Assembly: GCA_032128875.1 (NCBI GenBank) | Contig: JAVLKG010000005.1 | Span: 416,001 to 480,000, forward strand | DNA from: Candidatus Melainabacteria bacterium 17Bon1m | GTDB taxonomy: Bacteria > Cyanobacteriota > Vampirovibrionia > Obscuribacterales > Obscuribacteraceae | Reading direction: 5' to 3' | Length of the DNA: 64,000 bases | Shown here: piece after piece, positions 1,775 through 57,024 of the stretch | How positions within the stretch are numbered: position 1 is the first letter of the stretch | Layout: every line of letters starts with the position of its first letter | Notes under the pieces: model-generated | Database searches by the model: none | What the model was told of the DNA's origin: nothing | What the model saw: the letters and a program-made list of their open reading frames with translations, nothing else | Translations under genes and position numbers: made by a program

Positions 1775-1790
1775 GCAGAGGCTGAAGAGA

Positions 1791-23754: not shown

Positions 23755-24921
23755 ATGGCAGAGGACGAAATGACGAGTTCAACCACCGATAAGCGCGGCA
23801 CAAAGAGCGAGCGACTGACGGGCGCAGCGATTAGGCTGGTACGAAATGTGCCGGGACTCAAAGAATCCGTTCTTACTGGTGTAGCGTTTTTGACTCGCCA
23901 TGAAACAGGCTATCTTCAGGCTCGTGTCGAGAAGCTGGAAGCAGCAAGCCACGAGCTCAACAATAGAATTGTCGAGCTAACATCTCTACAAGCGAGCATT
24001 TCCACTCATCTTGCTGCCGAGCAGAAACTCAACGCGGATGTAAAAAACGAGGTTGGCGCTTTCCGCCGATTGGTCTTCCTCGACAAGCGCCGTGAGCTAC
24101 TGGCGAAAAGTTTTCCCGATTATGCAGGACATCTTCCTCCGGCTGGCGATTTGCGGGTTGAGCTTAATAAGGCATTGGTGGCAGCCAGCATGCCTGTTAT
24201 CGTTTTTACACACATACAAAAAACAGCGGGTAACAGCGTGATTGCCTATTTGCGCCGCTGCCTGACTAAAGAAAGAGTGGTGCGAATTCACGAATTGGAA
24301 ATGGCGACAACCGATGAAACACGTGCCGTCGTTGATTCCAAATTTGGGTTGTATGACGTGCTTGCCGGTCACATCCCGTACTCTCGTGGTGTCGATCGAA
24401 TGACGGACAGAGAGAGCGTCAATATTAGTATTATGCGAGAGCCCATCGATAGGGTAGTCTCGCTGTATTACTACCTGAAGGCAAATGCGAGCTGGCTCGA
24501 ACAGGGCAAACGCATTGTTGCCGAGAATATGTCCATTGCTGATTTTGCCTACAGCGATATCTATTTCGACAATCATATGGTGCGCATGCTTTGCGACCAA
24601 GATCCCGCTCGTGCGCCGCTGGGTGACTGCACGCCGGATATGCTGGAGCAAGCCAAGATCAATGTGCTGCGAAACTTCTTGCTGGTTGGCGTGACAGAGG
24701 AAATTCACGATTTCCTGGCGGTTTTGGCAGAACTCTTTTGCTGGTCTTTGGATGATGTGCCGAAAGAGAACGTAAATGAGGCGCGTGCGCCGCTGTCGAA
24801 AGTGTCACCCGATGCTATTAATGCTCTTTCAGATCGCAACAAATATGACGTAGCGCTTTATCAATTTGTCAAAGGTGTTTGGTCGGACACAATGGCTGCG
24901 CGCTCGAACCGCCCGAGGTAG
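23755..24921 (+). CDS. Carbohydrate sulfotransferase (Sulfotransfer_2-like) with N-terminal coiled coil
   Basis: 5'-PSB HIQKTAGNS, 3'-PB MREPIDRVVSLY, VGVTE, NKYDVALY. Confidence 0.85.
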   Translation: MAEDEMTSSTTDKRGTKSERLTGAAIRLVRNVPGLKESVLTGVAFLTRHETGYLQARVEKLEAASHELNNRIVELTSLQASISTHLAAEQKLNADVKNEVGAFRRLVFLDKRRELLAKSFPDYAGHLPPAGDLRVELNKALVAASMPVIVFTHIQKTAGNSVIAYLRRCLTKERVVRIHELEMATTDETRAVVDSKFGLYDVLAGHIPYSRGVDRMTDRESVNISIMREPIDRVVSLYYYLKANASWLEQGKRIVAENMSIADFAYSDIYFDNHMVRMLCDQDPARAPLGDCTPDMLEQAKINVLRNFLLVGVTEEIHDFLAVLAELFCWSLDDVPKENVNEARAPLSKVSPDAINALSDRNKYDVALYQFVKGVWSDTMAARSNRPR

Positions 24922-34661: not shown

Positions 34662-35792
34662 TTACTTCTGCCAATAAACCGCCGCACCATCAACTTCAAT
34701 GAGAGGTGCTTCTATTTTTCGCTCGTACCTAAAATCTATAATTGCCTTTTTGCAGGTTTCTAATAAATAGTCATCAACAATTACAAATCCATTTTCGGAA
34801 ACCTTGTCGTACAAGGCGTTTAGTGCGTCCATTGTTGATTCGTAAAGGTCGCCATCCAATCTCAAAATAGCTAGTCTTTTGATCGGCGCCACTGGCAGCG
34901 TGTCTTTGAACCAACCTTTTAGGAAGTGCACTTGATCGTCTAAAAGTCCAAATTTCTCAAAGTTCTGTTTCACTGTCTCAATTGAAACGGCCAATTCTTT
35001 CAGAGTCCAGTGGGGATCTCCTTTGTCAGCCGGATACTTTTCTGCATCGGGTTTTGGTAAACCTTCGAACGAGTCAGCAACCCAGATTTTTCTGTCATTT
35101 TGCAAGTAAGCACGACATATTGCTCGCATGTAGATACACGCACCACCACGCCAAACTCCAGTTTCTATAAAGTCCCCAGGTATGTTTTGCTTTATCACTT
35201 TCTCGCAAAGAAACCTGAGATTAGCCATTCTGGCGCGCCCGATCATTGTCACTGCCTCAGAAGGCCAATCCCAACCAATTTCTCTCAAGTCAGGGTTGAA
35301 ATCATCTGAAGAGCCAACCTGTAGTGGTTTGTCTCGATACAAGAGACCTACCAGAGCCTTTTCTAGAAGGTCTAAATAGAGTTTGGTGGAAGTGCTATCA
35401 AAACCTTGTGCCTCAGAATCTCCAACCTTCAAATGCTCGAGTTTTGAGTCAATGGCATACTCCATTGTCGAAAGCTTACCTAGCACTCGTGCAAAACTTT
35501 GCCCGACTTGCTGTTTGAGGTGAGCAACCTCTCCTCTCAATAATTCTCGCTCTCTGGTGAGAGTGGCATTATCTGCGCGAAGCTCACGACACTCAGCTTT
35601 TGCGAGTTCAAGCTTCTCTTGAAGATCTTTGATTTGACCAATGATACTGTCGTATCGGTTTCGAATCGCCGGGATTGAGAGCGCGACCGAACGTACAAGA
35701 GTTTTCGTCACATCAAACCCCTTTGAATTACCGGACCTAGACTCCTGAATCGGTATGTTAAAACCTTCTACGCCGGTTTGTATTTCATTCAA
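34662..35792 (-). CDS. TylF/MycF/NovP-family sugar O-methyltransferase with N-terminal coiled coil
   Basis: TMIGRARM, GDFIETGVWRGG, DSFEGLP, KGWFKDTLP, LRLDGDLYEST, VDDY. Confidence 0.92.
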   Translation of the reverse strand: MNEIQTGVEGFNIPIQESRSGNSKGFDVTKTLVRSVALSIPAIRNRYDSIIGQIKDLQEKLELAKAECRELRADNATLTRERELLRGEVAHLKQQVGQSFARVLGKLSTMEYAIDSKLEHLKVGDSEAQGFDSTSTKLYLDLLEKALVGLLYRDKPLQVGSSDDFNPDLREIGWDWPSEAVTMIGRARMANLRFLCEKVIKQNIPGDFIETGVWRGGACIYMRAICRAYLQNDRKIWVADSFEGLPKPDAEKYPADKGDPHWTLKELAVSIETVKQNFEKFGLLDDQVHFLKGWFKDTLPVAPIKRLAILRLDGDLYESTMDALNALYDKVSENGFVIVDDYLLETCKKAIIDFRYERKIEAPLIEVDGAAVYWQK

Positions 35793-36074
35793 TTAATATG
35801 CCAACTGCGGACCAGTGGTCATTCTGCTAAGTTTTTAGCCTTTGAATTGCCAAAAGGGATTTTGCAGTTCGCGACATCACGATCATTCGGTATACCATTT
35901 CCTATCTCATTGCTTGGCTACCGTATATGCGTTTGATGTAATCAGCGCAGCCGCGTACGTCAAGCCTCGGTTAAGTCTTAGTAAGGGTATTGTCATGAGC
36001 CCCTTTTCAGCTCTTTTCAGATTACTCTTCTATGGCAATATTGAAGTAGTCAATAGACGAGGTCACGCTTCTCA

Positions 36075-37454
36075 ATGGGTTCCGGTAACAAGCTATTCGG
36101 TGCATACGACATCCGCGGCACATACGGTCAGGCACTCAACGAAGATTTTGCCTTCAAGCTCGGTAGAGCATTTGGGCGATTTCTCTCTCCTGTCGAGCGT
36201 TTACGGGTTTTGGTCGGTCACGATAGCCGTACACACTCTCCTGGGTTGGCCGAAGCGCTGACCGCCGGTTTGACGACCGCTGGGCATGACGTTGTTAACC
36301 TGTCTGTTGCTTCCACCCCGATGATCGCCTGGTTTGGAGCCACCAACGGCTTTGACGCGAGCATCGCTGTTACAGCCAGCCACCTGGGCAAGGAGCACAA
36401 TGGCTTCAAGCTTTACACGGGCAAGGCCAACCCCATCGGTGCCGGCAACGGGCTCAAGGAAATAGAGAAGATATTGAACGAACTGGAGCCGGTCAACGGC
36501 AAGAAACCCGGTTCGGTTTCCCAGATTGATGGAGTCCAACAATACATCGAGTACTTAACGTCGATGCTGGCGCCTCACCGCCGTTTGAAAGTGGCAATTG
36601 ACGTTGGGCACGGCGCTGCTGCTCCTGAAGTCACAGAACTGCTTAGAGCTTGCAAGAGCGTTGATTTTATTGCCCTTGCTTGCAGTGTAGATGGAGAGTT
36701 TCCAGCCCGTTCGCCAAATCCCCTCGATGAAGGCGCTCTTGCTGAATTGTCGAAGCTGGTCGTCGATGAGAAGTGCGACTTCGGTGTTGCGTTCGACGGC
36801 GACGCCGACAGGGCTATTTTCGTTGACGAAAAGGGCACAATGATCGCTACCGATCTAATGATCGGTTTGGTAGGCGCTCATCTGATCGAGAACAAAGGTG
36901 CCGGCACTGTTGTGTTCGATCTTCGCGCCAGCCGTTCTGTTGGCGAACATATTGAAAGCCTGGGCGGAAAAGCCGTGCGTACCGGCGTCGGTACTATGTT
37001 TATCAAAAACAACATGGTCGAACATAAGGCAATTTTTGCCGGAGAGCTTTCTGGCCACTACTACTACGGCGACATGTATGACAGCGATAATGCCATGCGC
37101 ACGTTGATTGAAGTCATCAATCTTGTATCGCGTAAGGGACATCCGCTTTCCGCACATATAGAGCCGCTTTCTCGCTATTCTTCTAGTGGCGAAATCAATT
37201 TGCGCGTGGCCGGAATCGAGCAAGTTTTGCGCCATCTTGATGAAGCCATCACAGGTGGTGCCAAAGACCATATCGATGGTTTGTCGGTAAACTTTCCGCA
37301 GTGGTGGTTTGCAGCTCGTGGTTCTCAAACTGAGCCGGTCTTGAGGCTGACTGTCGGAGCCGTTAACCGAGAGATTTTGGAAGAACAGACTAAACATTTG
37401 ATTGGAGTTATCAATCAAGTGAAAGTGCCTGTCGTAACTTCCGACTGCAATTAG
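36075..37454 (+). CDS. manB: Phosphomannomutase/phosphoglucomutase
   Basis: AYDIRG, TASH, FDGDADR, GELSGHYY, RGSQTEP. Confidence 0.92.
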   Translation: MGSGNKLFGAYDIRGTYGQALNEDFAFKLGRAFGRFLSPVERLRVLVGHDSRTHSPGLAEALTAGLTTAGHDVVNLSVASTPMIAWFGATNGFDASIAVTASHLGKEHNGFKLYTGKANPIGAGNGLKEIEKILNELEPVNGKKPGSVSQIDGVQQYIEYLTSMLAPHRRLKVAIDVGHGAAAPEVTELLRACKSVDFIALACSVDGEFPARSPNPLDEGALAELSKLVVDEKCDFGVAFDGDADRAIFVDEKGTMIATDLMIGLVGAHLIENKGAGTVVFDLRASRSVGEHIESLGGKAVRTGVGTMFIKNNMVEHKAIFAGELSGHYYYGDMYDSDNAMRTLIEVINLVSRKGHPLSAHIEPLSRYSSSGEINLRVAGIEQVLRHLDEAITGGAKDHIDGLSVNFPQWWFAARGSQTEPVLRLTVGAVNREILEEQTKHLIGVINQVKVPVVTSDCN

Positions 37455-37527
37455 AAAAGATGACCCTCGAACATTTAACCGACTTCACCTGAAGCTCGGC
37501 AGTCTTTGTTTGAAATTATTTTAAGAC

Positions 37528-37555
37528 GCGCGACGCTACCGCCTGTCGTGCTTTT
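37528..37555 (+). terminator. Possible weak intrinsic terminator hairpin after manB
   Basis: GCGCGACG-ctaccgcc-TGTCGTGC (two G-U pairs) followed by TTTT. Confidence 0.3.
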
Positions 37556-37666
37556 CAGGCTGTTGCACAAGGTTCCTAAGTGCCTCTAACTAAACTTGCC
37601 AACAAGTACTTTAGAATCCTCATTTAACGGAAATTCCGACTAAACAAAGGCAACTCATAGGCATAT

Positions 37667-40600
37667 ATGCCTCGTCGCACGGATATCTCTAAAATCCTCA
37701 TCATTGGCTCCGGTCCTATCCGCATAGGTCAAGCTTGCGAGTTTGACTATTCCGGAACCCAGGCGTGCCAGGCGCTCCGCCAGGAGGGCTTTGAGGTCGT
37801 TCTGGTCAATTCCAACCCGGCGACCATCATGACCGACCCAGAAGTCGCTCAGCGGACTTATATAGAACCTTTGACCACAGAATTTGTGGAAGCGGTAATT
37901 GCACGCGAACGTCCGCAAGCGTTACTGCCGACAATGGGCGGGCAAACGGCTTTGAACATTGCGGTGAATTTGCACGACCAAGGCATTCTTCAGCGCTACG
38001 GTGTTGAACTAATCGGCGCAACTATGGAAGCGATCAATGTCGCTGAGGACAGGGCTCTTTTCCGCAGCAAGATGATAGAAATCGGCGAACCTGTGCCGCG
38101 TTCATTCATTGCGCATTCGCTAGAAGAAGTCGAAGAACACAAAGACGAGATCCCTTTGCCTTGCATCATTCGTCCTGCTTTTACTCTCGGTGGCACCGGC
38201 AGTGGTGCGGCTGACACTTACGAACAATTAGTGGCGGCCTGCCGCATCGGTTTGGCTGCAAGCCCTGTCAGTGAAGTTCTTATCGAAGAAAGCGTTTACG
38301 GCTGGAAGGAAATGGAACTCGAGGTCGTACGCGATAAGAAGGATAACTTCATCGTCGTTTGCGGCATAGAAAACCTCGATCCGATGGGCGTTCACACCGG
38401 CGATTCGATTACCGTCGCGCCGATACAAACGCTTAGCGATCGCGAGTATCAAAAGCTTAGAGATGCCGCAGCGAAGATTATCAGAGCGATTGGAGTCGAT
38501 TGTGGTGGTTCCAATATTCAATTCGCCGTCAACCCGGTGAATGGTGATTACATCGTCATCGAGATGAATCCGCGCGTGTCGCGTTCGTCCGCACTGGCAA
38601 GTAAGGCGACGGGCTATTCCATTGCTAAAGTAGCTGCGAAGCTCGCAGTCGGCTTTACGCTTGATGAACTCAAGAATGAAGTGGCCGGAATTTCAGCTTG
38701 TTTTGAGCCATCAATTGATTATGTGGTGACCAAAATCCCTCGCTTCAATTTCGATAAGTTCTACGGTGCAAAAGATGGTCTAGGTACTGAGATGCGCTCG
38801 GTGGGCGAGGTTATGGCGGTCGGTACTACTTTTGCCGAATCCATGCATAAGGCTCTGAGAAGTTTGGAACTCAATCTGGCTGGATTTACCGAAACGCCTG
38901 GACGTGCCGCAGCTACTCGTGAGCTATTGACCCAGAGACTGGCGACTCCGTCGCGCTATCGTCTCACCGATATCGCCACTGCTTATGCCCAGGGGTGGTC
39001 GGTTGAGGATGTGCAAAAGGTCTCGAAAATAGATCCGTGGTTTCTCCATAATTTGAAAGAAATTTGCGACAACGAGCGCGGTGCGCGAGCCGTAATTGCA
39101 AAAATCATTGAGAATTTCGGTGTCAAAGCACTCTTCCGCGAGTTTGAAGCGGGCTTGCTTTTGCGTCTCAAGCGCGAGTTCTTCAGCGATGCTCAAATTG
39201 CATCATTTATCAATTCGGCAGTTGGGCGTGAAGTTGCCACTGAAGGTGCCATTTACGCTTTTCGCCAACGCCTCGATTTGCGCCCGGTGTATAAGGCCAT
39301 CGACACTTGCGCCGGCGAGTTTCCCACTCAAACGAATTACTTGTACTCGACATTTGCTCCGGCTCGAGAAGAATACAAAGCTGACGACTCCCAGAAAGTG
39401 ATCATCCTGGGCAGTGGCCCGAATCGCATCGGACAAGCCATCGAGTTTGACTACTGCTGCGTTCAAGCCAGCTTGGCTATAAAAGAGCAAGGCAAGAAGT
39501 CGATCATTGTTAATTGCAATCCTGAAACAGTCTCAACAGACTACGATGTTTCTGATGTTCTCTACTTTGAGCCGCTGACTCTTGAATCAGTGAGCAATAT
39601 TCTTGCCGTAGAAAAGCCGCTTGGAGTGATTGTGCAATTCGGTGGACAAACGCCGCTCAATCTTGCCGAGAAGCTGGAAGCCCGTGGATTCAAGATTTTG
39701 GGAACTTCGGTGAAAGCAATCAAGCTTGCCGAAGATCGCTCCAGTTTTAGAACAGTTTTGTCCGAGCTGGGCATCAGGCAGCCGGAAGGCGCCATTGTTC
39801 ATACCCGTGACGAGGCGCTGAAAGCTGCACGCTTGTTGGGCTTCCCTGTTCTGCTACGACCGAGCTTTGTTCTTGGTGGAAAAGCGATGCACATTGCTCG
39901 CTCTTCGGACCACTTGCTCGAATTGATTGATTCTATTTTTGCGGCGTCGCCGGATCAGCCACTTTTGATCGATCGCTTTTTACAGCATGCTGTTGAAGTT
40001 GACGTTGATGCACTTTCAGATGGCGAGACGACTATCGTAGCCGGCATAATGGAGCACATCGAAGAAGCCGGAGTTCACTCCGGAGACAGTTCGTGCGTGC
40101 TGCCTTCGGTGTCTTTGTCCGAAGAATCAAAATCTCGCATTGTCGCTGCTACCGAAGCAATTGCTGAAAAACTGTCCGTCAAAGGTTTGATGAACGTTCA
40201 GTACGCTATCAAAGACGGTGAGCTTTACGTGCTTGAGGTAAACCCGCGTGCCTCGCGCACTGTTCCATTCGTTTCAAAAGCAACCGGAGTATCGTGGGCA
40301 AAGTTGGCGACCCGAGTGATCATGGGTGAAAAGTTGAGCGACTTGAAGCCGCTTATTCAGCCGGTCGACAATGGTTATGCCGTTAAGTCTGTCGTCATTC
40401 CTTTTGAGCGATTTGTCGATGCACAAGTTTGCCTCGGTCCTGAGATGCGCTCAACCGGTGAGGTTATGGGCCAGGGGGCGAGCTTCGAGGAGGCTTATGC
40501 CCGCGCGCAAATCGCGTCAGGAAAAGCCTTGCCAGTCAATGGACCGGTTCTTATTGCTGCCTCGGAGCATTTGATTGGTGAGGCGCTAAGTGTTGTTGAT

Positions 40601-40993
40601 GTTTTCCGGCGGCATGGCACCGAAGTGATTGTCACTTCCGAGGTTGCTGATTCATTCGATCCCATGAATGCTGATGCGGAAATTATTGATTTGACCAATT
40701 GGCGCATAGAGGACATAGCTGCCTGGATGAAGAAGGCTAACGTCAAACGCGTGGTCAGTTTGTCACCTTTCGACAAACTCTGTCCTGTTCAGGCGAAAGT
40801 TCGAAGAGCTGCCGTGGGACAGGCGATTCCATTGAGCATGACCACCAGAGATGCAATTGGTGTTAGCCAGGCAACAATGACGGTCTCGAAAATGAGTTTG
40901 CAGTTGAAAGCGATTCAAGAGCGCCGTGCTGCGGCTCCTCAGCCTCAATTCGCGGGCGCACCGGCAGCGCCGGTTGGCCAATTTACTATTTGA
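37667..40993 (+). CDS. carB: Carbamoyl-phosphate synthase large subunit with divergent C-terminal MGS domain
   Basis: [47 protein letters not shown], second ATP-grasp [39 protein letters not shown]. Confidence 0.96.
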
Positions 40994-41107
40994 AAAATTT
41001 AACCGCCTTTCAACCTGATATTTCAGTCAGGACTAGAGGTTGGCCTAAGGCTTATCATTGTGCCGGCGGCTTTCTTGCCGTCTTGCCACTAATCGGAAGG
41101 CGATAAC

Positions 41108-42946
41108 GTGACCGGAAAAGTTCGAATACTGGGGATCTCGGCTTATTACCATGACTCCGCCGCTTGCCTTGTAGAAGACGGTGTCATTGTTGCTGCGGCG
41201 CAAGAAGAGCGTTTCACACGGATAAAGGGCGATTCTAGTTTCCCTCACAATGCAGTTGGTTTTTGCCTTGAAACTGGCGGGATTACCGAAAAGGACATTG
41301 ATTATGTCGTTTTCTACGAGAATCCATACGCCAAGTTCGACCGACTTTTAACCACCTATCACGCTACTGTTCCGGCGAGTTTACCTTCATACCTGCGCAG
41401 TTTGCCGGTATGGTTGACTCAGAAATTGTGGATGAGAAAACAGATTTCCGAAGAGTTGGGCGTGAAAAAGCATGTCTACTTCTGCGATCACCACTTGTCG
41501 CACGCAGCCAGCGCCTTTTTTCCATCGCCATTTGAAGAAGCTGCGGTGCTTACGATCGATGGCGTCGGTGAATGGTCTACGACCACTTACGGCATAGGCA
41601 AAGGCGACGATCTGAAGCTGCTCAAGCACATTCGTTTTCCTAACTCACTTGGGTTGCTTTATTCGGCATTTACGTACTACACCGGCTTCAAAATCAATAG
41701 CGGTGAGTACAAATTGATGGGTCTTGCGCCTTACGGCAAGCCAATTTATGCACAGATGATCATGGAAAAACTGATCACCGTTGATGAAGAAGGTGCAGTT
41801 GCTCTTAACCAACATTACTTTGACTATGTTGGTGGACTGACCATGACTAATGCTCGTTTTGATGAGCTTTTCGGCGGACCTCCTCGGGAGCCGGAATCAA
41901 TCATTCGCCAGAAGGAAATGGATATTGCCGCGAGTATTCAGAAAGTTTTGAATGACGTCCTCATCATCATGGCTCGTCATGTGAAGGAAGCAACAGGAGC
42001 CAAAAACCTGGTGTTGGCCGGTGGAGTAGCGCTGAATGTAGTGTCTACTGGAATACTTTCGCGCGAAAAAATCTTCGAGCAAATCTGGATTCAACCGGCG
42101 GCTGGAGATGCCGGTGGCGCGCTTGGCGCTTGCCTCTGGATGTGGCATCAGGTTTTGGGCAAAGGCAGAACCGTTCAAAAGCCTGACTCCATGTCCGGTG
42201 CTTTCCTTGGTCTGGAAATCCCCGATTATTCCGAAGAGGATGATGCCGTGCTTCGCCGAATGGGCGCTGTTTGGCAAGAGATGGATGAAGAGACTCTGCA
42301 AGACGCAATTGCCGAGGCTATCGACAATGGAGAGATCGTTGCTGTAGCTAGAGGCCGCGCTGAATTTGGACCAAGGGCGTTAGGAAGCCGTTCTATTCTT
42401 GCCGATGCGCGCAGTCAGAAAATGCAAAGCCACTTGAACTTGCAGGTGAAGTTCCGCGAGAGCTTCCGACCTTTCGCTCCGATGGTTCTGGCTGAAGACG
42501 CTGAGGAATACTTTGATATTCCGCAAGAAAGTCCGTATATGTTGCTCTGTTACCCGGTTTTGGAAAAACAGAGAATTGCTGTGCAGGATAAGGGGCTGTT
42601 CGGAATCGATCTGTTGAAACAACCCCGCTCTAAGTTGCCGGCAATCACTCACGTGGATTACTCGGCTCGTGTGCAGACAATTGACAGAGACAGAAATCCG
42701 TTTATTCATTCTGTCATCAGCAAATTCAAAAGCCGCTCCGGCTGCTCGGTAATCGTCAACACGTCATTCAACGTGAGGGGCGAGCCGATTGTGAACACCG
42801 CAGAAGATGCATATCGCTGCTTTATGGCCACGGAAATGGACTGCGTGGTGATTGGAAATCGTTTCTTTAGAAGAAAGGACCAGCAGGAAAAACCGCTCAG
42901 CGAAGAAGAAAGATCTGCCTGGTTGAGGAGGTTCGACCTTGACTAA
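41108..42946 (+). CDS. O-carbamoyltransferase (NodU/CmcH/SxtI family)
   Basis: HDSAA, AQEERF, HHLSHAASAF, DGVGE, GEYKLMGLAPYG, EFGPRALG, KFRESFRPFAP, NTSFNVRGEPIV. Confidence 0.95.
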   Translation: MTGKVRILGISAYYHDSAACLVEDGVIVAAAQEERFTRIKGDSSFPHNAVGFCLETGGITEKDIDYVVFYENPYAKFDRLLTTYHATVPASLPSYLRSLPVWLTQKLWMRKQISEELGVKKHVYFCDHHLSHAASAFFPSPFEEAAVLTIDGVGEWSTTTYGIGKGDDLKLLKHIRFPNSLGLLYSAFTYYTGFKINSGEYKLMGLAPYGKPIYAQMIMEKLITVDEEGAVALNQHYFDYVGGLTMTNARFDELFGGPPREPESIIRQKEMDIAASIQKVLNDVLIIMARHVKEATGAKNLVLAGGVALNVVSTGILSREKIFEQIWIQPAAGDAGGALGACLWMWHQVLGKGRTVQKPDSMSGAFLGLEIPDYSEEDDAVLRRMGAVWQEMDEETLQDAIAEAIDNGEIVAVARGRAEFGPRALGSRSILADARSQKMQSHLNLQVKFRESFRPFAPMVLAEDAEEYFDIPQESPYMLLCYPVLEKQRIAVQDKGLFGIDLLKQPRSKLPAITHVDYSARVQTIDRDRNPFIHSVISKFKSRSGCSVIVNTSFNVRGEPIVNTAEDAYRCFMATEMDCVVIGNRFFRRKDQQEKPLSEEERSAWLRRFDLD

Positions 42947-43610
42947 GACTGCATTAGCTGAAAGAAACGAAGTTGCCTTCAGACCCAATCGCAATGCGCG
43001 GGGCTCAGGTCATGTGAGCTCTTACATGAAGCGCTTGAACGTGCGCAGAGAGCGCGCGGCTTTGAAAAACAACGTTATTTTTGGACTGACAATCGGCTGG
43101 GTGCTCACTTTGATGGGCGCTTTCAAAACTTACATTTTGCTTGAAAGCGGCGTGTCGCAGCTGATGCTGGTCGCTGGTGTGGCATTCCTCGGCACCACGC
43201 TTGTTGCGCCCGGACTGATGATTTATCCGCATAAAGTCATGAAAGGGATCGCTACTTTTGTTGGCACCAATTTGTTCAAAGGAATTCTTTGTGTTGTTTA
43301 TTTCCTGACTATCCTGCCTGCAGGACTTATCTACCAGAAGAAAAACAATCACGAACCCTTTTACTCATGGGCAGCGGGTAATGCTCCTAAGATTGAAGGA
43401 TGGACGGAAAAAATTGCCTCTGACGAAAATGGTAAGTCTTCCGAATACAGCTTGCCTGGTTGGCTGCAACCACTCTCTGTCGTGATCTATTTCGCGCGCA
43501 ACAGTCAGTTGCTTTTCCTTCCTTGCTTGATCGTACTTCTCATGCTCGGATTGATCGGAGTTTTTGTTCAAAGCAGTGCGTTGGCTCCATTTATATACAC
43601 ACTGTTCTAA
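42939..43610 (+). CDS. Fused SxtJ-like + SxtK/DUF5989-like membrane protein
   Basis: SxtJ-like FG..P..GIL..YF..ILPAG segment followed by a terminal TM helix ending QSSALAPFIYTLF; overlaps the carbamoyltransferase stop. Confidence 0.8.
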   Translation: MTKTALAERNEVAFRPNRNARGSGHVSSYMKRLNVRRERAALKNNVIFGLTIGWVLTLMGAFKTYILLESGVSQLMLVAGVAFLGTTLVAPGLMIYPHKVMKGIATFVGTNLFKGILCVVYFLTILPAGLIYQKKNNHEPFYSWAAGNAPKIEGWTEKIASDENGKSSEYSLPGWLQPLSVVIYFARNSQLLFLPCLIVLLMLGLIGVFVQSSALAPFIYTLF

Positions 43611-43634
43611 GAAGCTGTTTTAAGAGGAAGAGAG

Positions 43635-45215
43635 TTGCTGGAATTAGCTAGCAAGCCAAAAACAAGCAAAGCAGCTCCGCGTCATTTGTCCGCGGGGACT
43701 GTTGCTCTAACGTCCATCGGCTACTTTGCTGCGTCGCTTGCGATTATCGTCGGTGCTGCATTTGCTCTTGACCGCTGGATTATTCCCGAGATGGAAAATC
43801 GCGGTTATCTCGAATCTCATTTGTGGGCGGATGAAAATCATCAGCTCAATCACTTCACCTATGTGAAGAATGAAGCGCGTAAGGAAAACCCTGTCTGGCG
43901 TTCGCAGTATATTCCCGTAACTGCAGAGCATCCTGGCAAACAGCGAATTCTCGTTATCGGCGATTCATTTGTTTGGGGGGATGGTTCTAACAATGTGAAC
44001 ACCCTCTGGTGGCGCCAATTAGAGCTCGAGCTACAACATCGTGGCTACAACAACGTTGAAATCGTTGCGGCCGGATTGAATGGTGCCAGTACGCACGACC
44101 AGCTGAATTGGTTGGGTTCGATCTTGCCGAAATACACGCCAGATCTTGTGATATTTGGCTGCGTCACCAATGACGCCGATGAAAAGGATGCTAGCGGTAA
44201 GTCTTATGTGCGCATGATTCCGAAAGAATTGCCCGCACGAGAAAGTGCTGATTCTAAGCTGAACAGTCTCTTGCCAAATCTGTCCGGACAGTTGGAGCAG
44301 ATAAGTAAACTCTCGCGCCTGGCTCATTTGAGTCAGAAGTCCACAGCATTGGAATATGCAGATTGGGAACTTGCCTTGTTGAAAGGACAGAATTTCAAAG
44401 CGTATCAAAATACCGTTTCGTCTCTTGCTAATCAATTGAAAACCGCTGGTGTACCGGCCTTTGTAATTTCGCTTCCGGCTGGTTTTCAAAACAAGACAAA
44501 AGAAAACACAGCCGGCGGACAAAACTTCTTCGATAGTGTGAAGGCCTACAATGAGCAGCGTTTTTCCGCTTTTGCGCCAGTGTTCAAGTCCTCGGGTCTA
44601 CTCTTTGTTGATACGACCGAAGCATTCGCAAAGGCTGCATCTGCCGATCCCCGTTTGAAGTCGAGTGGCTCGCCTCTGCGTCTGGGAATAAATCCCAGCA
44701 ATGGACATCCTGGTCCGTTCTCGACCCACTTCTATGCTGTTTCTGCTGCCGATACTATCGAGCGAAATTTCCCTGCTCTCTTGACCAAAACAGCCAGTGC
44801 ATCCAATTCGACTGTTTCCAGATCAGGCGTTGAGATAAACGACTGCATGCCGCCGTATATGAACGTGCGTGCTGATGAGAAAGAGGCTGGCAGTTTTCAG
44901 TTCACCTATCCGCCTGATGTTGCTGAACATACTTTGTTCATGCCGTTGCGTCGCCGTCACGTTCAACTGTCCTTAAAAAAACCAGCTCAAGTTCATACCG
45001 TTGAAATCAGCGGAGACAACCTATCTGCTGCACAGATTTATCCGAGCTTTTTCGATGCCAAACTTGGCTACACGCCGGACGAATTCTCATCGTTGCCACT
45101 TAAAAAGGGAAATGTGCTTACCTGGAATTTGGGCGACAAACAACTGAGCGCACTCAAGATCCGCGCTAGCTTTAATGGCGGCAATCAGGCGCTCAAAATC
45201 CATTTTACGAACTAG
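43635..45215 (+). CDS. Membrane-anchored SGNH/GDSL-family protein (SxtL-like position)
   Basis: N-terminal TM, RILVIGDSFVWG, AAGLNGAST, VTNDAD, NPSNGHP. Confidence 0.8.
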   Translation: MLELASKPKTSKAAPRHLSAGTVALTSIGYFAASLAIIVGAAFALDRWIIPEMENRGYLESHLWADENHQLNHFTYVKNEARKENPVWRSQYIPVTAEHPGKQRILVIGDSFVWGDGSNNVNTLWWRQLELELQHRGYNNVEIVAAGLNGASTHDQLNWLGSILPKYTPDLVIFGCVTNDADEKDASGKSYVRMIPKELPARESADSKLNSLLPNLSGQLEQISKLSRLAHLSQKSTALEYADWELALLKGQNFKAYQNTVSSLANQLKTAGVPAFVISLPAGFQNKTKENTAGGQNFFDSVKAYNEQRFSAFAPVFKSSGLLFVDTTEAFAKAASADPRLKSSGSPLRLGINPSNGHPGPFSTHFYAVSAADTIERNFPALLTKTASASNSTVSRSGVEINDCMPPYMNVRADEKEAGSFQFTYPPDVAEHTLFMPLRRRHVQLSLKKPAQVHTVEISGDNLSAAQIYPSFFDAKLGYTPDEFSSLPLKKGNVLTWNLGDKQLSALKIRASFNGGNQALKIHFTN

Positions 45216-45263
45216 TCAGATACTGATTGTACTGATATCTATCACAATCACTCTCTGAACTGC

Positions 45264-46763
45264 CTACTGCGGCATTCTGAGTTGGTCTGAATCGATGATT
45301 TTTCCCAGGTTGGAAATCGAATCGTTGATTTGCAGCATTGAAAATTCGACGGTGGGCGATGACTGTAAAAGAGTCCGCGCCATATCGCGCGCTTGCACGC
45401 GTATTTCCGGTACAGCTACAGTCTCGCCGCGCAATCCAAGCGTGTTTGTGCCCAGAGTGAATATCACTCTGCTGGGCTTTTGATTTGCATCAAGAACGGC
45501 GCCATCGGTGCGCACGTTGATGCCTAAGCCGGTAGCGTGAGGTTGGACGATTCCGCGTGTCAGTAAAGACTGAGCCAATGTTGATTTGGATTTGCGGAAA
45601 TCCGGAGTGAAGCCGGAGCAATTGAGCATGAGGTTGACTTTCAGCTGATGCGGCTGGCCGCCTCCTCGCGGCATTATCGTCGCGATTAGTGCTTCAGAAG
45701 TTTCGTTGACGCTGTAGAGTCTTCCAGCCATCACTTTCAGCTTTCCTGACTGAATGAGCTGCTCTATTGCATCACCAATTTCCGGCGCCATACGATGACG
45801 GTGAACATCCCAATACGTGCGAATATGCCTCAGGAAGCGCCTCTTTTGCTTATCGGTCAAGGAAGCCCAGAGCGCTTGCGAATGGGGTCTTAGCGAGTCG
45901 ATGACTTGTCTCCAGTCGCTAACTTCCATTTTGACTGTTGAGGCATTGTCGAAAAGTTGCTCGAAAGAACCGTTTCTTATGGATTCTTTCACTGCTTTGA
46001 AGAGCAGATTGAGATCGCCATACAGCTCTTGATTCAATTCGGTTTGGGCAAAAGCCGGCACTGAAGTTTTTGAATGAGCGCGGGGCAGGAGTCCGTGGCG
46101 AGAAACCGCATATATCGTGCCTTTGAAGCCGCTGTGGACAAGTTCTAGCGTTTTGTCCACCGTGGTCAGGCCTGTCCCTATCAAAAGTGCATCGCCTGCA
46201 ATGGTATCGAAGCTGGTGGCATTAGGCTTCCAGGGATTGCCGATATATCTTTCTGATGCGGCGATTCCTTGCGATATTCCAGAAGGTGCCGAAGGGCTGA
46301 AATTGCCAGTCGCCAGCACTACTTTGTCGGCTACAATGACTTCGCCGCTCGCCAATTTTAGTACGGCCTTTGTCTCGTCCTGAATAAGTTTTACCGACAG
46401 GACTTCGTCTTCCACTCGCTCGAATGTGACTAGAGACGGCAGATTGTTCGTCGCCGCGTGCAATATGTTTTCCACGTATTCGCCATAGAGCGCACGAGAA
46501 ACAAAAGCTGTTTCACTCAGCCTTGGATACTTTGTCCGTGCCCACTTTAGAAAGTGCAGTGGCTCGTCAGGAAACGCGCTCATACGACCGGCAGGGACAT
46601 TCAGCAAATGTCCTGGGAATTGCGTGGAATAAGCCACACCTTTGCCGGCTTTTTCTGCCGGTTCGATAAGTGCGACTTTGATTGGTGTGCGCGCTTGCTG
46701 GATAAGGTTAACGGCTGTAAGAGTGCCAGTAAAGCCACCACCAATAATTGCCACTGTAATCAT
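45264..46763 (-). CDS. FAD/NAD(P)-binding oxidoreductase (YdhS-like)
   Basis: IIGGGFTG, GKGVAYST, LLNVPAGRMS, IGTGLT, WDVHRHRMAP, ETVAVPE. Confidence 0.85.
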   Translation of the reverse strand: MITVAIIGGGFTGTLTAVNLIQQARTPIKVALIEPAEKAGKGVAYSTQFPGHLLNVPAGRMSAFPDEPLHFLKWARTKYPRLSETAFVSRALYGEYVENILHAATNNLPSLVTFERVEDEVLSVKLIQDETKAVLKLASGEVIVADKVVLATGNFSPSAPSGISQGIAASERYIGNPWKPNATSFDTIAGDALLIGTGLTTVDKTLELVHSGFKGTIYAVSRHGLLPRAHSKTSVPAFAQTELNQELYGDLNLLFKAVKESIRNGSFEQLFDNASTVKMEVSDWRQVIDSLRPHSQALWASLTDKQKRRFLRHIRTYWDVHRHRMAPEIGDAIEQLIQSGKLKVMAGRLYSVNETSEALIATIMPRGGGQPHQLKVNLMLNCSGFTPDFRKSKSTLAQSLLTRGIVQPHATGLGINVRTDGAVLDANQKPSRVIFTLGTNTLGLRGETVAVPEIRVQARDMARTLLQSSPTVEFSMLQINDSISNLGKIIDSDQLRMPQ

Positions 46764-52318: not shown

Positions 52319-53302
52319 ATGATTCTTGTCACCGGAGGCGCCGGGTACATCGGCAGTCACTTCGTTCGATACTACACGCAGTGCCGTCCGGCAGAAAAAA
52401 TTGTTGTTCTGGATAATCTGGTCGAAGGGCATCTTGAAGCTCTGGAAGGGCTATCGAATGTACACTTCGAACGTGCAGATATTAACGACTTCGATGCAGT
52501 AAAGGAGATTCTGAAAAAACATTCGGTAGATGCAGTCGTTCATTTTGCATCGTACTGCTACGTTGGAGAGTCACAAGAAAACCCCAGCAAGTACTACGAA
52601 AACAACGTTGTGGGATCCATCAGTCTATTTCGCGCGATGGATGAATGTGGTGTAAAGAAGCTTGTTTTTTCTTCGAGTTGTGCGACATACGGTGTGCCTA
52701 CAAAGTTGCCGATTGATGAGACTCATCCACAAAATCCTATCAACGTGTACGGATTGACGAAATTTTTGATCGAAAGAATTCTCGAAGGTTATGCCTATAC
52801 GAAGGACTGGAGTTTTACCGCTCTTAGGTATTTCAATGCTGCCGGAGCCCATCCGGAGGCTCTAATTGGCGAAAGCCACGCACCGGAAACACACATAATT
52901 CCGCTTGCCTTAAAGACTGCATTGGGCACAAAAGAACAACTGCATGTGTATGGAGATGACTATGAAACTCCTGATGGCAGCTGTATTCGCGATTATATCC
53001 ATGTGGAAGATTTGGCCTCGGCGCATTTACTGGCCGTGGAAAAATTATCTGAACAAAAGGGTGGACAATTCATCAACCTCGGCACTGCCCATGGTGCATC
53101 AGTAAAAGAAATCGTCGCTTTATGCGAAGAAATCACGGGCAAAAAAATCAATCATTCTTTCAGTCCTCGACGCTCTGGCGATCCCGCACGCCTGGTGGCC
53201 GATCCTGGCAAGGCTGTCAGTTATTTGGGATGGCGGCCGCAACATGATTTGCGTTCGATTATTGAGACCGCTTGGAAGTGGGAGCAAAACAAACGTTACT
53301 AA
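52319..53302 (+). CDS. galE: UDP-glucose 4-epimerase
   Basis: GGAGYIGSH, VGES, FSSSCATYG, YGLTK, LRYFNAAGA, PETHIIP, DGSCIRDYIHV. Confidence 0.95.
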   Translation: MILVTGGAGYIGSHFVRYYTQCRPAEKIVVLDNLVEGHLEALEGLSNVHFERADINDFDAVKEILKKHSVDAVVHFASYCYVGESQENPSKYYENNVVGSISLFRAMDECGVKKLVFSSSCATYGVPTKLPIDETHPQNPINVYGLTKFLIERILEGYAYTKDWSFTALRYFNAAGAHPEALIGESHAPETHIIPLALKTALGTKEQLHVYGDDYETPDGSCIRDYIHVEDLASAHLLAVEKLSEQKGGQFINLGTAHGASVKEIVALCEEITGKKINHSFSPRRSGDPARLVADPGKAVSYLGWRPQHDLRSIIETAWKWEQNKRY

Positions 53303-53303
53303 G

Positions 53304-55286
53304 ATGAATTCTGACGAACGGGTCGAAGCTCTCGCACGCGGGGTATTGATTCTCGCCTGCTCGCTTGCCGCTTTTGGTCTTGCCTTTGTGCTTCCTGACG
53401 GAAAACCGTTTGCCGATCAGGGCTTTAATTGGTATGTAAATTCCGGACAGCACAATCTGCTGGCGCCCAGAATTGCGTATGTCTTCTTTTGTCTTTCCCT
53501 CTCTATTTGCGCCGTGCTTCTCAATCGTGGAAAGACACTCTGCTTAGGTTTTACAAGAAGTCATTTCCCCATTCTTTCAGCCGTTGTTTACTTGTCGGTT
53601 CTCGCCTTTGGCGCTGCTGCTCTCATTCCTTTCGTCAATCAACTGGCAATATTGGGTGTATCGGTCATTCTCGTCTGCGTATCTGTTTTCGCCTTCCGGA
53701 TTTTGCCTCGAAGAACCGTTGATTTGCTGCTTTTGATTTCTGCCGTCGCCGCTTTTCTTATTGCATTGGTGCCTGGGCTGTCTTCGCTCCCAGACCTCTC
53801 TTCGCACTTCCCGGAATCAATTGCCGATATCGAAGCACACCAGGCACTTTCCACTGCTGCAAATGTTCAGCTCGCTCAAGGCGCAAAGCTTTTCCAGGCG
53901 GTTTCTGCCCGCTACGGCATTTTATGGCAATCGCTTCTCGGGGCTTGGACAACGCTCGTACATCCGCTAACGGTGGGTGATTCGATCATGTTTACTCGTT
54001 GGCTACACACTTTGTTTTTTGCATTTGCGTCATTTGCTTATTTCAAATTCTCTCGCAACAAAGTTATTGCAGCGTGTCTGGCAATTCTTTTCATCGCACC
54101 CTGGATGGAGCTCAGGCAGCCGCTTTTCGTTTTCCCTCAAGTGTCATCTTGGCGTTATTTTGGATTTGCGGCCGTACCACTGATAGTTCTTCTTTTAGAG
54201 CGGACCGCTGCTAAGACAAAGTTCTTTATATTGGGCATTACCGCAGGTCTTTGTCTTTTGTCTGACTTCGCTTCCGGTATTTCAATCGCCGTAGGGCTTC
54301 TGGCATATACCTGCTTTTTGAAACAGCAAGACGCTCGACTTAAATTGATTGGTTTGTATCTGGGTGGAATCATCATCTCAATTGCTGTTTTCTTTGGCAC
54401 CTTTGCTGCGATTTTCGGCTATGTGCCTTCTGCATCAGCGTTCATGATCGACCTAAAGAACACTATCTGGGAAGCTGCCGGCGGCACTGCTCCTGCTCTC
54501 AGCTATCCATTCGACCCGCTCGCTATTTTGATTCTTGTGCACACTGCATATGTATGCCTTTCGATTGTGTCGCAAGCAAAAGGTTCAGTTTCGCCGCGAA
54601 ACGCATTGCGGCTCTCTATCGGAATAATTTCGTTGTTGTGGTTTGTGCATTATGTGAATGAACCGAATACTTTTGCATTGCGAGCTTGCCGTGTGCTTTA
54701 TGCGTTCTTTTTGATTGACCTGTTTCGAATTCTGTTGGTCACTAAAAAGTTTCGCTTGCATGCAAAAGAACCGCTCTGGATGGCGCGTTTGCTGCTGCTT
54801 GCCATTGTCGTTCCGGCTGCTGTCTTGTCGTACCAGCCGGCTGCCGAAAAGGCTTGGGCAATGGTGGCTGGAGAGACCCGCAAAGACAGTGCCAAAGTGC
54901 TTGTTTCCGGCGTCTGGTTGCCGGAAGAAGTTGGTCGCGCATTGCAGCAAAAGGCGAAGTTTATCCAACGAATTTCGGGTCAAAAGCCCATCTATTACTT
55001 GACTGCAGACAGTTCTTTTATTCCGGTACTGTCGCAAAAAGTTTCCGCTGCACCTGTGGCGGACCCGACCAACTTGGTTTTTGCAAAGCAGTGCGATCGG
55101 CTCGTACAAGCAATAACAAATGCAGGAGCGAATGAAATTTTTGTGGACGATCCTGATTTTGTCACGTCGAAAGGCGTGGTGCGACGGAGCTGTTTTGATT
55201 ATTTGCGCGTCCTTCTCTCTCGAAATTACCAGCTTGTAAGCACGTCTGACGGCTGGCAGGTCTGGCAGAAAAAACAACGCCAGTAG
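53304..55286 (+). CDS. Polytopic membrane protein, possible GT-C-like transferase
   Basis: ~13 hydrophobic segments and a soluble C-terminal tail; ATG 1 nt after the galE stop. Confidence 0.65.
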   Translation: MNSDERVEALARGVLILACSLAAFGLAFVLPDGKPFADQGFNWYVNSGQHNLLAPRIAYVFFCLSLSICAVLLNRGKTLCLGFTRSHFPILSAVVYLSVLAFGAAALIPFVNQLAILGVSVILVCVSVFAFRILPRRTVDLLLLISAVAAFLIALVPGLSSLPDLSSHFPESIADIEAHQALSTAANVQLAQGAKLFQAVSARYGILWQSLLGAWTTLVHPLTVGDSIMFTRWLHTLFFAFASFAYFKFSRNKVIAACLAILFIAPWMELRQPLFVFPQVSSWRYFGFAAVPLIVLLLERTAAKTKFFILGITAGLCLLSDFASGISIAVGLLAYTCFLKQQDARLKLIGLYLGGIIISIAVFFGTFAAIFGYVPSASAFMIDLKNTIWEAAGGTAPALSYPFDPLAILILVHTAYVCLSIVSQAKGSVSPRNALRLSIGIISLLWFVHYVNEPNTFALRACRVLYAFFLIDLFRILLVTKKFRLHAKEPLWMARLLLLAIVVPAAVLSYQPAAEKAWAMVAGETRKDSAKVLVSGVWLPEEVGRALQQKAKFIQRISGQKPIYYLTADSSFIPVLSQKVSAAPVADPTNLVFAKQCDRLVQAITNAGANEIFVDDPDFVTSKGVVRRSCFDYLRVLLSRNYQLVSTSDGWQVWQKKQRQ

Positions 55287-55395
55287 CTGCCCCGCAATCG
55301 GCGCAGCAAAGCCCTTCCAATCACGCGAGGGCCCTAGGCAACACTCGCGTACAGGGCTCTCGCACTACCACCACCTGTGGTGCGCAAAATCCTAT
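55286..55395 (-). ncRNA. Candidate structured small RNA downstream of the promoter
   Basis: Three consecutive GC-rich stem-loops in non-coding DNA; no known family recognised. Confidence 0.3.
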
Positions 55396-55401
55396 ATATC
55401 T

Positions 55402-55429
55402 ATTATACATACGCGCGTATGTATGTCAA
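55402..55429 (-). promoter_or_regulatory. Consensus sigma70 promoter overlapped by a perfect 20-bp palindromic operator
   Basis: Minus strand TTGACA-16 nt-TATAAT; ATACATACGCGCGTATGTAT (55405-55424) is a perfect palindrome. Confidence 0.7.
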
Positions 55430-55467
55430 TCGAAAAGTCAGTCCTACTGCTCTCGCTCTAGTCTTGC

Positions 55468-57024
55468 TTACTTCACTTCCAGAATCAAACCGCGATTAGC
55501 TCCTATGACTTTCGCAGATATGTTGATAGTGTTTATCCCTCGACCTTTTGCTTCCGGTAATTTCCAGGAGAGCCACGAGCCATTTTTGTTTCCGAGACTG
55601 AACATTTCGCCATTGTCGAAATGTTTTGCTGCATCCACATTCGTTATGTAGAGCGATGCGCCCTTGAGCCCTGTGCCTCCTAGGGTAATTTCCTTCGCAT
55701 TGATAGGCGTTTCTAAATTGAGCTCGATGAATGGCTTTCTCAAAGGCATATTGCGGAAGTCGTCCGCCAATTTCATTGGATATACAACAACAATTTTGTT
55801 GTCTGTCTGTTGGATTTGTAAATTGGGCGGAATGCAGTCGTTGACGCGTAACTGGGCGTCTTTCGATGTGGGCTCACTGGACTTTGTGCCAAGAATCGGC
55901 GCAAAATCCTTTTCTAAAACATCAGCCGCATGAACACCGTAAGCATATGTTGCCCATCTGTTCGGATGCGCGTTGGCAGGATTTACGCCAAAGGACAGGA
56001 CACCCTTTTTTACAAGGCTGTCTTCTTTTCTGGCTGCGTTGATCCATGTGTCGTAGCTGTCTACAACACGAACATCGCGATCCTCGAAGGCTTTTTTGAT
56101 CGGCGGAAAAACGCGATCATAATGTGCCTTGATTCCGTCGAAGTCGACTTTTCCAGGGCACTCATATGGCAAAAGCATGATGAATGAAGGGATGGAGAGG
56201 CTGTGCAGATAATTTGCTGTATTGTCGAGCGTTTTGCCGTACATGCTCCAGTTCTCGCCGGAAAGCAGGCTAAACTCCCAATTGGGCGGGTTATCCTTTG
56301 TGAATTCACCTGAGCGTGTCTTACGCAGATAAGCTTCCCGCAACGCGATCAGTTGATGTGAAAGATGTGGGTACAGTCCTTTGAATGCTTCGAGTAATCC
56401 ATTTTGGCGATGAGGACGGAATAGCAACTTCTGGTCGAAGTCTGCTGTTTGCATTCGCGACATTTCGTCTGCGTCATTGGGAATATATCCCCAAATCACG
56501 AGGTCAGGCTTGAATTTCGGGATTACCTTTTTGGCAGCATCGAGTTCTAAGCGCGTGTTTAAGCCCTGCATTCCGGCTGCGATTATTTCTACATCTTTGT
56601 AGCCGCGACGCTCCAATTCTCTGGCCAGCTGACGCCACCAGATGTCGTTCATGTTGTTGTAACCATGACCCCATACGAAAGAATCGCCAATTACCAGAAT
56701 GCGATGAGCTTTGGCAGACTTCTCTGCGACCGGCCACAAACTGGAGTGCCAGACAGGATTTTGATTGAGATCTGCTTTATTCCTGGCGTGTGCCCAGTAA
56801 TAGATGAAATCGTCCTCTTCTGTCCACGACGCTGAAACGATTTTGCCTTCGTCTTCCAAGGCAGGGATGATCAAGCGATCAAGCACAACAGAGACAAGCA
56901 AGATGAATGCCAGCGAAATCGAGAAATACTTAACGCTAAGTTGCGGAAATATTGCCGCTTTCGTATGAGGTTTCTCTGATTTTTCAGCGCTAATTTTTTG
57001 AGTCACTTCGCCGGCAGCAATCAC
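55468..57024 (-). CDS. Membrane-anchored SGNH-family protein, paralog of 43635-45215
   Basis: LDRLIIP, NPVW, RILVIGDSFVWG, WWRQL, PNDADE, NPANAHP, NDCIPP, MPLR shared with the paralog. Confidence 0.8.
   Translation of the reverse strand: MIAAGEVTQKISAEKSEKPHTKAAIFPQLSVKYFSISLAFILLVSVVLDRLIIPALEDEGKIVSASWTEEDDFIYYWAHARNKADLNQNPVWHSSLWPVAEKSAKAHRILVIGDSFVWGHGYNNMNDIWWRQLARELERRGYKDVEIIAAGMQGLNTRLELDAAKKVIPKFKPDLVIWGYIPNDADEMSRMQTADFDQKLLFRPHRQNGLLEAFKGLYPHLSHQLIALREAYLRKTRSGEFTKDNPPNWEFSLLSGENWSMYGKTLDNTANYLHSLSIPSFIMLLPYECPGKVDFDGIKAHYDRVFPPIKKAFEDRDVRVVDSYDTWINAARKEDSLVKKGVLSFGVNPANAHPNRWATYAYGVHAADVLEKDFAPILGTKSSEPTSKDAQLRVNDCIPPNLQIQQTDNKIVVVYPMKLADDFRNMPLRKPFIELNLETPINAKEITLGGTGLKGASLYITNVDAAKHFDNGEMFSLGNKNGSWLSWKLPEAKGRGINTINISAKVIGANRGLILEVK

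Follow-up and report, generated by a model that had tools for sequence, protein, structure and literature searches.

Why should a set of glycan-biosynthesis genes include one for a carbamoyl phosphate synthase (CPS), and why should the allosteric domain of that enzyme be unrecognisable to Pfam? These questions are raised by a carB gene (encoding protein P0001) in 64,000 nucleotides of contig JAVLKG010000005.1, positions 416,001 to 480,000, from Candidatus Melainabacteria bacterium 17Bon1m. We call this whole 64-kb stretch the window. Arginine and pyrimidine synthesis diverge at carbamoyl phosphate, and the allostery of CPS is a textbook case. We think it rather probable that P0001 is an accessory, catalytically complete CarB (CPS large subunit), blind to the usual effectors, which supplies the O-carbamoyltransferase of the island, in a genome that also encodes a canonical, regulated CarB. 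The gene and its domains are as follows; P0286 is a canonical CarB of the same assembly, and the baseline is a comparison across phyla.

37667..40993, +: carB paralog, a CarB with a remodelled allosteric domain, 1108 aa (NF003671, TIGR01369, Pfam, phmmer)
37667..38866, +: carboxyphosphate (first ATP-grasp) domain, about residues 1-400; 68% identity to P0286 (baseline 67%)
38873..39376, +: oligomerisation domain, about residues 403-570, boundaries approximate, with a short insert relative to E. coli; PF02787, 58.7 bits
39377..40519, +: carbamoyl-phosphate (second ATP-grasp) domain, about residues 571-951; 60% identity to P0286 (baseline 60%)
40520..40918, +: remodelled MGS-like (allosteric) domain, about residues 952-1084 (E. 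coli alignment, AlphaFold2, Foldseek)
40919..40990, +: C-terminal Ala/Pro/Gln-rich extension of about 24 aa, predicted to be disordered (predicted local distance difference test, pLDDT, <50 at model residues 153-174)

Catalytic core and allosteric tail

By its sequence, P0001 is unambiguously a CPS large subunit. Over the whole protein it scores 1484.6 bits against NCBIfam NF003671 (cut-off 599). It scores 1393 bits against TIGR01369 (cut-off 1027), and phmmer matches it to E. coli CPS (1bxr) with 1100 bits. Pfam CPSase_L_D1, D2 and D3 are all matched, and both the order of the four domains and the length are those of canonical bacterial CarB. A preliminary description of the window had called both ATP-grasp halves well conserved. 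This is borne out by the NF003671 score, by PF02786 and PF25596, each of which is found twice, and by the 19 catalytic residues checked, all identical to those of E. coli. In the first half these are R129, R169, E215, H243, N283, Q285, E299, N301, R303 and R306; in the second they are R675, R715, E761, H788, Q829, E841, N843, R845 and R848. Each is retained in 19/19 of the CarBs that lack a match to the Pfam MGS domain (PF02142), which we call MGS-less. The residues of the ammonia-tunnel gate (C232/A251/A314) likewise have the E. coli identity in 19/19. The sole difference among the carbamate-tunnel residues of P0001 is an alanine at the position of G575 (residue 591, 39389-39391). The equivalent residue is Ala in 11/19 MGS-less CarBs, P0001 included, and Gly in the canonical proteins examined. 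The catalytic, gate and tunnel residues, and the tunnel role of G575, follow the assignments for E. coli CPS. Judged by these residues, the catalytic machinery is intact.

The NF003671 equivalog takes both P0001 and canonical P0286 (1652.8 bits). Because it covers both forms, automatic annotation cannot separate the MGS-less paralog from canonical CarB. The Pfam D3 score of the oligomerisation domain is modest (58.7 bits), though its divergence matches the cross-phylum baseline. In the phmmer alignment this domain is some 12 residues longer than in E. coli through an insert at 39060-39170 (about residues 466-500 of P0001).

Domain by domain, the identities are:

P0001 against same-assembly canonical P0286: carboxyphosphate 68%, oligomerisation 39%, carbamoyl-phosphate 60%, allosteric 18%
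P0286 against E. coli (the cross-phylum baseline): carboxyphosphate 67%, oligomerisation 40%, carbamoyl-phosphate 60%, allosteric 45%

In these alignments the divergence of P0001 is restricted to the allosteric domain. No match to PF02142 was found in the whole protein, nor in its last 171 residues alone at E<=10. The phmmer alignment with E. coli CarB ends at query residue 978, and that with CPS1 extends to residue 1057. When E. coli CarB (reference sequence from NC_000913.3) and canonical Obscuribacterales CarBs are aligned with P0001, its tail lines up with the canonical ones, without any large indel. The allosteric domain starts in the E. coli alignment at about residue 952 (about nucleotide 40520); the start first proposed, 40538, is residue 958. 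The tail is common to eight proteins, with 63-95% identity. Since it is shared by these proteins, collinear and confidently folded in prediction, its divergence is attributable neither to a frameshift nor to chance. The Ala/Pro/Gln-rich extension differs in sequence and length across the MGS-less clade.

The preliminary description had also stated that the canonical C-terminal motifs are replaced. They are, and the strings quoted in their stead ([26 protein letters not shown]...P...TT) are present in the tail as stated. At the same alignment positions P0286 has SVSDVHK, ATRGTA, VNKV, INIPSG and RRAS..VVTT. The motif region had been identified as the effector site for uridine monophosphate (UMP) and inosine monophosphate (IMP). 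This agrees with the replacement of the contact residues and with the roles given to T977, K993 and S948 in excerpts of PMC6245113. According to these excerpts, the binding of UMP and the inhibition by it depend crucially on T977 and K993, and S948F renders E. coli CPS insensitive to both UMP and IMP. Ornithine is hydrogen-bonded by T1042, and T1042I strongly cuts ornithine activation (PMC6245113, excerpts). In E. coli numbering, the residues found in P0001 are:

S948: A
K954: I
T974: T (kept)
T977: V
K993: L
N1015: S
T1042: M

Canonical P0286 and P0031 retain S948, K954, T974, T977, K993, N1015 and T1042. In the MGS-less family K954, K993 and T1042 are substituted in 19/19 and T977 in 17/19. 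As aligned, the UMP/IMP-site and ornithine-site residues of the tail are replaced by hydrophobic or small residues. With these contacts gone, P0001 is most likely insensitive to UMP/IMP and ornithine, and so blind to the feedback signals of pyrimidine and arginine synthesis.

The overall architecture of the tail appears unchanged. An AlphaFold2 model of residues 935-1108, built from an alignment of 18 family members, has a mean pLDDT of 80 and a core above 90. It consists of alternating strands and helices, with the last 22 residues or so disordered. The top Foldseek match in the Protein Data Bank is 1jdb_B, the allosteric domain of E. coli CPS (template modelling (TM) score 0.67, root-mean-square deviation 2.7 Å, 134 columns, 16% identity). 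Next come human CPS1 (5dou, TM 0.64), the isolated CPS MGS domain 2yvq and methylglyoxal synthases. Because the model core is confident and its best match is 1jdb_B, the predicted tail is taken to retain an MGS-like fold. The term "eroded", used in the preliminary description, is therefore not appropriate: the domain keeps its full length, its predicted fold is MGS-like with a CPS allosteric domain as best match, and it is 66-95% conserved within the close clade.

To quantify the constraint on the tail, we compared the ratio of tail identity to catalytic identity within matched bins of catalytic identity:

55-65%: MGS-less 0.37; canonical, other phyla 0.59; canonical Obscuribacterales, no value
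65-75%: MGS-less 0.36; canonical, other phyla 0.65; canonical Obscuribacterales, no value
75-85%: MGS-less 0.60; canonical, other phyla 0.68; canonical Obscuribacterales 0.88
85-100%: MGS-less 0.79; canonical, other phyla 0.95; canonical Obscuribacterales 0.94

By this measure the MGS-less tail evolves faster than canonical CarB tails at matched catalytic identity. The lower ratio indicates that constraint on the tail is relaxed, not absent; the tail, as these identities portray it, is remodelled under relaxed constraint and not decaying.

Could the tail instead have been re-tuned to a different ligand, so that the enzyme is regulated by a signal from the glycan pathway? The intact fold and the close-clade conservation of 66-95% would suit such a pocket, and a GGDEF-domain protein is encoded within the island. 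There is also a precedent, as the MGS-like domain of human CPS1 binds N-acetylglutamate (NAG) according to excerpts of PMC4655335 and PMC6022934. Across the 19 members, however, tail conservation is just about 25% where catalytic identity is 64-67%, versus 38-45% for canonical tails. This loose conservation and the small number of invariant tail positions argue against a shared specific pocket, and no ligand can be named. We regard re-tuning as unlikely, and prefer a tail that has lost its effector contacts and kept its fold.

A probable second, canonical CarB

The preliminary description took P0001 for a specialised paralog. It proposed a search for a second, canonical carB and a CarB phylogeny; both agree with the paralog part of that claim.

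The nearest relatives of P0001 are proteins named as from Candidatus Melainabacteria or from Obscuribacterales metagenome-assembled genomes (MAGs). In a full-length search, the best 19 rows (P0002-P0020, 98% to 54% identity) are without a precomputed PF02142. Among them P0012 is incomplete, so that its lack of PF02142 is uninformative, and it was excluded from the trees. The other 101 rows of this search (from P0021 on) all carry PF02142, as judged by eye among the matches listed. For the canonical Obscuribacterales CarB P0031, 120/120 relatives listed have PF02142, at 71-100% identity, and many of these are named Obscuribacterales, Obscuribacter or Melainabacteria. The usual CarB of the Obscuribacterales is therefore the canonical one.

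The 90%-identity cluster of P0001 and the canonical 1086-aa cluster of P0168 have five GenBank accession series in common:

MGS-less PZM85327; canonical PZM81007; accession difference 4320
MGS-less MBX9951082; canonical MBX9952021; accession difference 939
MGS-less HIA53332 and HIA55661 (two partials); canonical HIA50692; accession differences 2640 and 4969
MGS-less HIN67511; canonical HIN65695; accession difference 1816
MGS-less HNB23524; canonical HNB25146; accession difference 1622

All of the series with a P0001-type CarB (5/5) thus also hold a canonical, MGS-bearing CarB, 939-4969 numbers away. No such pair was seen in the first 20 clusters examined; the pairs were found in a later look-up. 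The differences lie within the protein count of one genome, and from this sequential numbering we infer that both carB genes occur in the same assemblies, that is, that the two forms co-occur in one genome. The second canonical carB is located in the same way.

Trees were made from 51 CarBs, namely 19 MGS-less proteins, 17 canonical Obscuribacterales proteins and 15 from other phyla. They were quick trees, unrooted and without bootstraps, and four rows have long branches. With all columns, a branch with a Shimodaira-Hasegawa-like approximate likelihood-ratio (SH-aLRT) support of 100 separates the 19 MGS-less proteins from the rest. The same split has an SH-aLRT of 100 on E. coli columns 1-933 only, under a site-mixture model. 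The canonical Obscuribacterales CarBs form a separate clade (SH-aLRT 99). These results support P0001 as a paralog and not as the housekeeping CarB of the lineage. In these unrooted trees, the MGS-less clade may have arisen by an old duplication or by transfer.

A phmmer search of the tail against 1.84 billion representatives gave four matches at E<=0.001, each a fragment (169-234 aa). These four are no measure of family size, as MGS-less CarBs are probably subsumed under canonical representatives by the 50%-identity clustering. A tblastn search with the tail gave no match in plasmids, and an ESM Atlas search returned generic CarB clusters only, with taxa mostly unrecorded.

The glycan island and the proposed role

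A Pfam scan of the 47 open reading frames (ORFs) of at least 150 aa identifies the window, by gene content, as one glycan-biosynthesis island. It contains GT2 and GT4 glycosyltransferases, a Wzy-like protein, an ABC-2 exporter pair, nucleoside-diphosphate-sugar epimerases, dehydratases, nucleotidyltransferases, O- and C-methyltransferases, a sulfotransferase and an AT3 acyltransferase. The genes flanking carB are:

36075..37454, +: phosphomannomutase/phosphoglucomutase, upstream of carB with a 212-nt gap (PF02878, PF02879, PF02880)
41108..42946, +: NodU/CmcH/TobZ-family O-carbamoyltransferase, 612 aa (PF02543, 308.8 bits; PF16861, 228 bits)
42939..43610, +: hydrophobic protein with a C-terminal DUF5989, start uncertain (PF19451, E=2.1e-9)
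43635..45215, +: SGNH/GDSL-like hydrolase-fold protein, 526 aa, with a hydrophobic N-terminal segment (PF13472, E=4.1e-8)

The O-carbamoyltransferase follows carB on its strand after a gap of 114 nt. Its nearest solved proteins are the novobiocin carbamoyltransferase 9s2t (309 bits), GdmN and TobZ, and it is of the NovN type. Carbamoyltransferases of the NodU/CmcH class consume carbamoyl phosphate, according to an excerpt of PMC6022934. The phosphomannomutase/phosphoglucomutase scores 339.9 bits against NF007088, under the cut-off of that model, and gives a sugar-precursor context.

The genes of the transferase, the DUF5989 protein and the SGNH protein are closely packed on one strand (41108-45215). 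The DUF5989 protein has long hydrophobic stretches and overlaps the transferase stop by 8 nt. Membrane-protein-plus-SGNH systems that O-acylate extracytoplasmic glycans have a similar layout. Further decorating enzymes are encoded by four ORFs at 2983-5328, 21309-22625, 23755-24921 and 34662-35792. These are a 781-aa AT3-domain protein, a sugar C-methyltransferase (PF08421/PF08484), a sulfotransferase and a TylF-like O-methyltransferase; together with the carbamoyltransferase they predict a heavily modified glycan. A protein with DUF4388 and GGDEF (diguanylate cyclase-like) domains at 11397-13208 (-) hints at cyclic-di-GMP-linked control of the island polysaccharide. Several large ORFs, located at 7921-11384 (-), 15508-17642 (+) and 53244-57024, are without a Pfam match under the thresholds applied; they encode 743, 418, 473, 238, 680 and 518 aa. 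Rfam and tRNA scans of the window gave no matches.

We propose that the MGS-like domain has been kept as a structural module while its effector pocket was rewritten. The genes for CarB, the O-carbamoyltransferase, the DUF5989 protein and the SGNH protein run along the + strand and are presumably co-expressed. P0001 would then make carbamoyl phosphate on demand for O-carbamoylation of the island glycan, with the adjacent transferase as the likely consumer, a pairing suggested by adjacency in this one window. Control would come through co-expression with the island and not through allostery, with no shut-off by UMP and no dependence on ornithine. Decoration of the glycan would neither drain the arginine/pyrimidine pool nor be throttled by it.

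Several points weigh against this proposal. The roles of the effector residues derive from E. coli, and those of K954, T974 and N1015 from the structural literature. The co-occurrence of both forms in a genome derives from sequential GenBank numbering. Three of the eight canonical series (MBA385, MCC697 and MCC752) have no MGS-less partner among the listed members, which fits either an accessory gene or incomplete MAGs. The link between carB and the transferase stands on one locus. A promoter/terminator consensus scan of 35700-45400 found no more sites than in shuffled sequence, and nothing that would define an operon. Close-clade tail conservation is still 66-95%, and the tail may therefore do more than scaffold. 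A predicted complex of the carbamoyltransferase with the tail had scores of 0.01 and 0.10 against a mark of 0.32, and weighs neither way on binding.

A different account would make P0001 one of two housekeeping CPSases, specific for arginine or pyrimidine, with its position in the glycan island incidental. It is well established that a bacterium can have two CPSases with different specialisations and different regulation, as described for B. subtilis, G. stearothermophilus and L. plantarum, and for fungi as well, in excerpts of PMC6245113. The second, canonical CarB in the same accession series would also be expected. However, this account sits poorly with the locus. The preliminary description had noted the absence of carA, pyr and arg genes nearby. 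This is correct for the 64 kb: none is found among the 47 ORFs by Pfam, and tblastn with E. coli CarA finds no CarA-like gene. The neighbours of the gene on its strand are sugar-pathway genes, and the O-carbamoyltransferase is 114 nt away. As a baseline we used 80 canonical carB loci (1.30 Mb) among the matches listed, retrieved with the pattern EFDYCCVQ and a full-length P0001 scan. These loci have 44-63% best-segment identity to P0001, and none is from Melainabacteria. A homolog of the O-carbamoyltransferase is found at 0/80 of them (E<=1e-5). It would also be odd for a housekeeping enzyme to have no MGS-less copy in 3/8 of the canonical series. A second housekeeping role is thus rather improbable.

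The same absence of carA raises the question of the nitrogen donor. P0001 might act alone, as an ammonia-dependent CPS without CarA. No CarA-like gene lies in the 64 kb, and CarB alone makes carbamoyl phosphate from ammonia (PMC6245113, excerpts). The ammonia reaction of the E. coli enzyme, however, requires very high, probably unphysiological concentrations, according to the same excerpts. The carboxyphosphate and oligomerisation domains, which contact CarA (PMC6245113, excerpts), are conserved at the cross-phylum level (68% and 39% versus 67% and 40%), and the ammonia-tunnel gate is intact. A CarA-like match is present in the flanks of 49/80 canonical carB loci and missing at 31/80, so the absence of carA near P0001 is only mildly unusual and weak evidence. 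We consider CarA independence improbable. Because the CarA-contacting domains have not diverged beyond the cross-phylum level, the gate is intact and the ammonia reaction is demanding, P0001 probably obtains its nitrogen from glutamine through the housekeeping CarA.

The idea that P0001 is the only CarB of its lineage, with an odd tail that is typical of Obscuribacterales and shared by its relatives' housekeeping CarB, is rejected as highly improbable, since the P0031 relatives listed (120/120) carry PF02142, 5/5 accession series pair both forms, and the two forms are separate, fully supported clades.

The accessory role proposed here for P0001 could be part of a wider one. The MGS-less CarBs may be an unrecognised subfamily of constitutively "open" carbamoyl phosphate generators for O-carbamoylation of glycans and natural products. 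In this picture CarB, the transferase, DUF5989 and SGNH of the island would be one unit that carbamoylates a surface polysaccharide, the tail would have a new purpose as an effector site or partner surface, and the enzyme might run on ammonia without a dedicated CarA. Taken as a whole, this extension is speculative and unlikely.

Comparison with known carbamoyl phosphate synthases

Pathway-dedicated CPS paralogs are known already, and P0001 probably belongs to that kind. What would be new is a natural, conserved CarB-only subfamily with a wholly rewritten effector pocket, found next to an O-carbamoyltransferase within the glycan island of a cyanobacterial relative that is not photosynthetic. 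In the open-access literature, no CarB in a glycan or O-carbamoyltransferase cluster was found described, DUF5989 was not mentioned, and Obscuribacter and carbamoyl were not mentioned together. If the proposal is true, it would be an example of how bacteria keep a side use of a tightly regulated central metabolite apart from its main uses: the synthase is duplicated and the copy loses its feedback control. Such enzymes would also be ready scaffolds of feedback-resistant CPS for engineering arginine, citrulline, pyrimidines and carbamoylated products. Because both forms receive the CarB name, CPS may be miscounted or wrongly assigned when pathways are reconstructed for Melainabacteria and other MAGs.

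Compared with canonical CarB (E. coli CPS, 1jdb/1bxr), P0001 is alike in domain order, ATP-grasp sites, tunnel residues and predicted C-terminal fold. It differs in an allosteric sequence that Pfam cannot recognise and in its replaced effector contacts. Its setting also differs, being a glycan island with an O-carbamoyltransferase and not arg or pyr genes, with no carA in 64 kb, and it is probably a second copy in its genome.

The pathway-specific CPS paralogs of Bacillus subtilis, Geobacillus stearothermophilus and Lactobacillus plantarum are similar in that there are two large subunits, each apparently dedicated to a pathway. In those bacteria each paralog has its own carA in a pathway operon. 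They serve arginine versus pyrimidine synthesis, whereas P0001 is linked to glycan O-carbamoylation; the two cases are set apart here by description and not by sequence.

The natural changes T1042M/L and S948A, together with the loss of K993 and T977, resemble the control-blunting mutations T1042I and S948F of E. coli CPS (PMC6245113, excerpts). Those mutants are single laboratory changes in a housekeeping enzyme, whereas in the MGS-less family the whole pocket is rewritten in 19 natural members. Human CPS1 is a precedent for a change of ligand, to NAG, with the fold kept. However, CPS1 is fused, NAG-dependent and eukaryotic, while in the tail of P0001 no new ligand is evident and the constraint appears relaxed.

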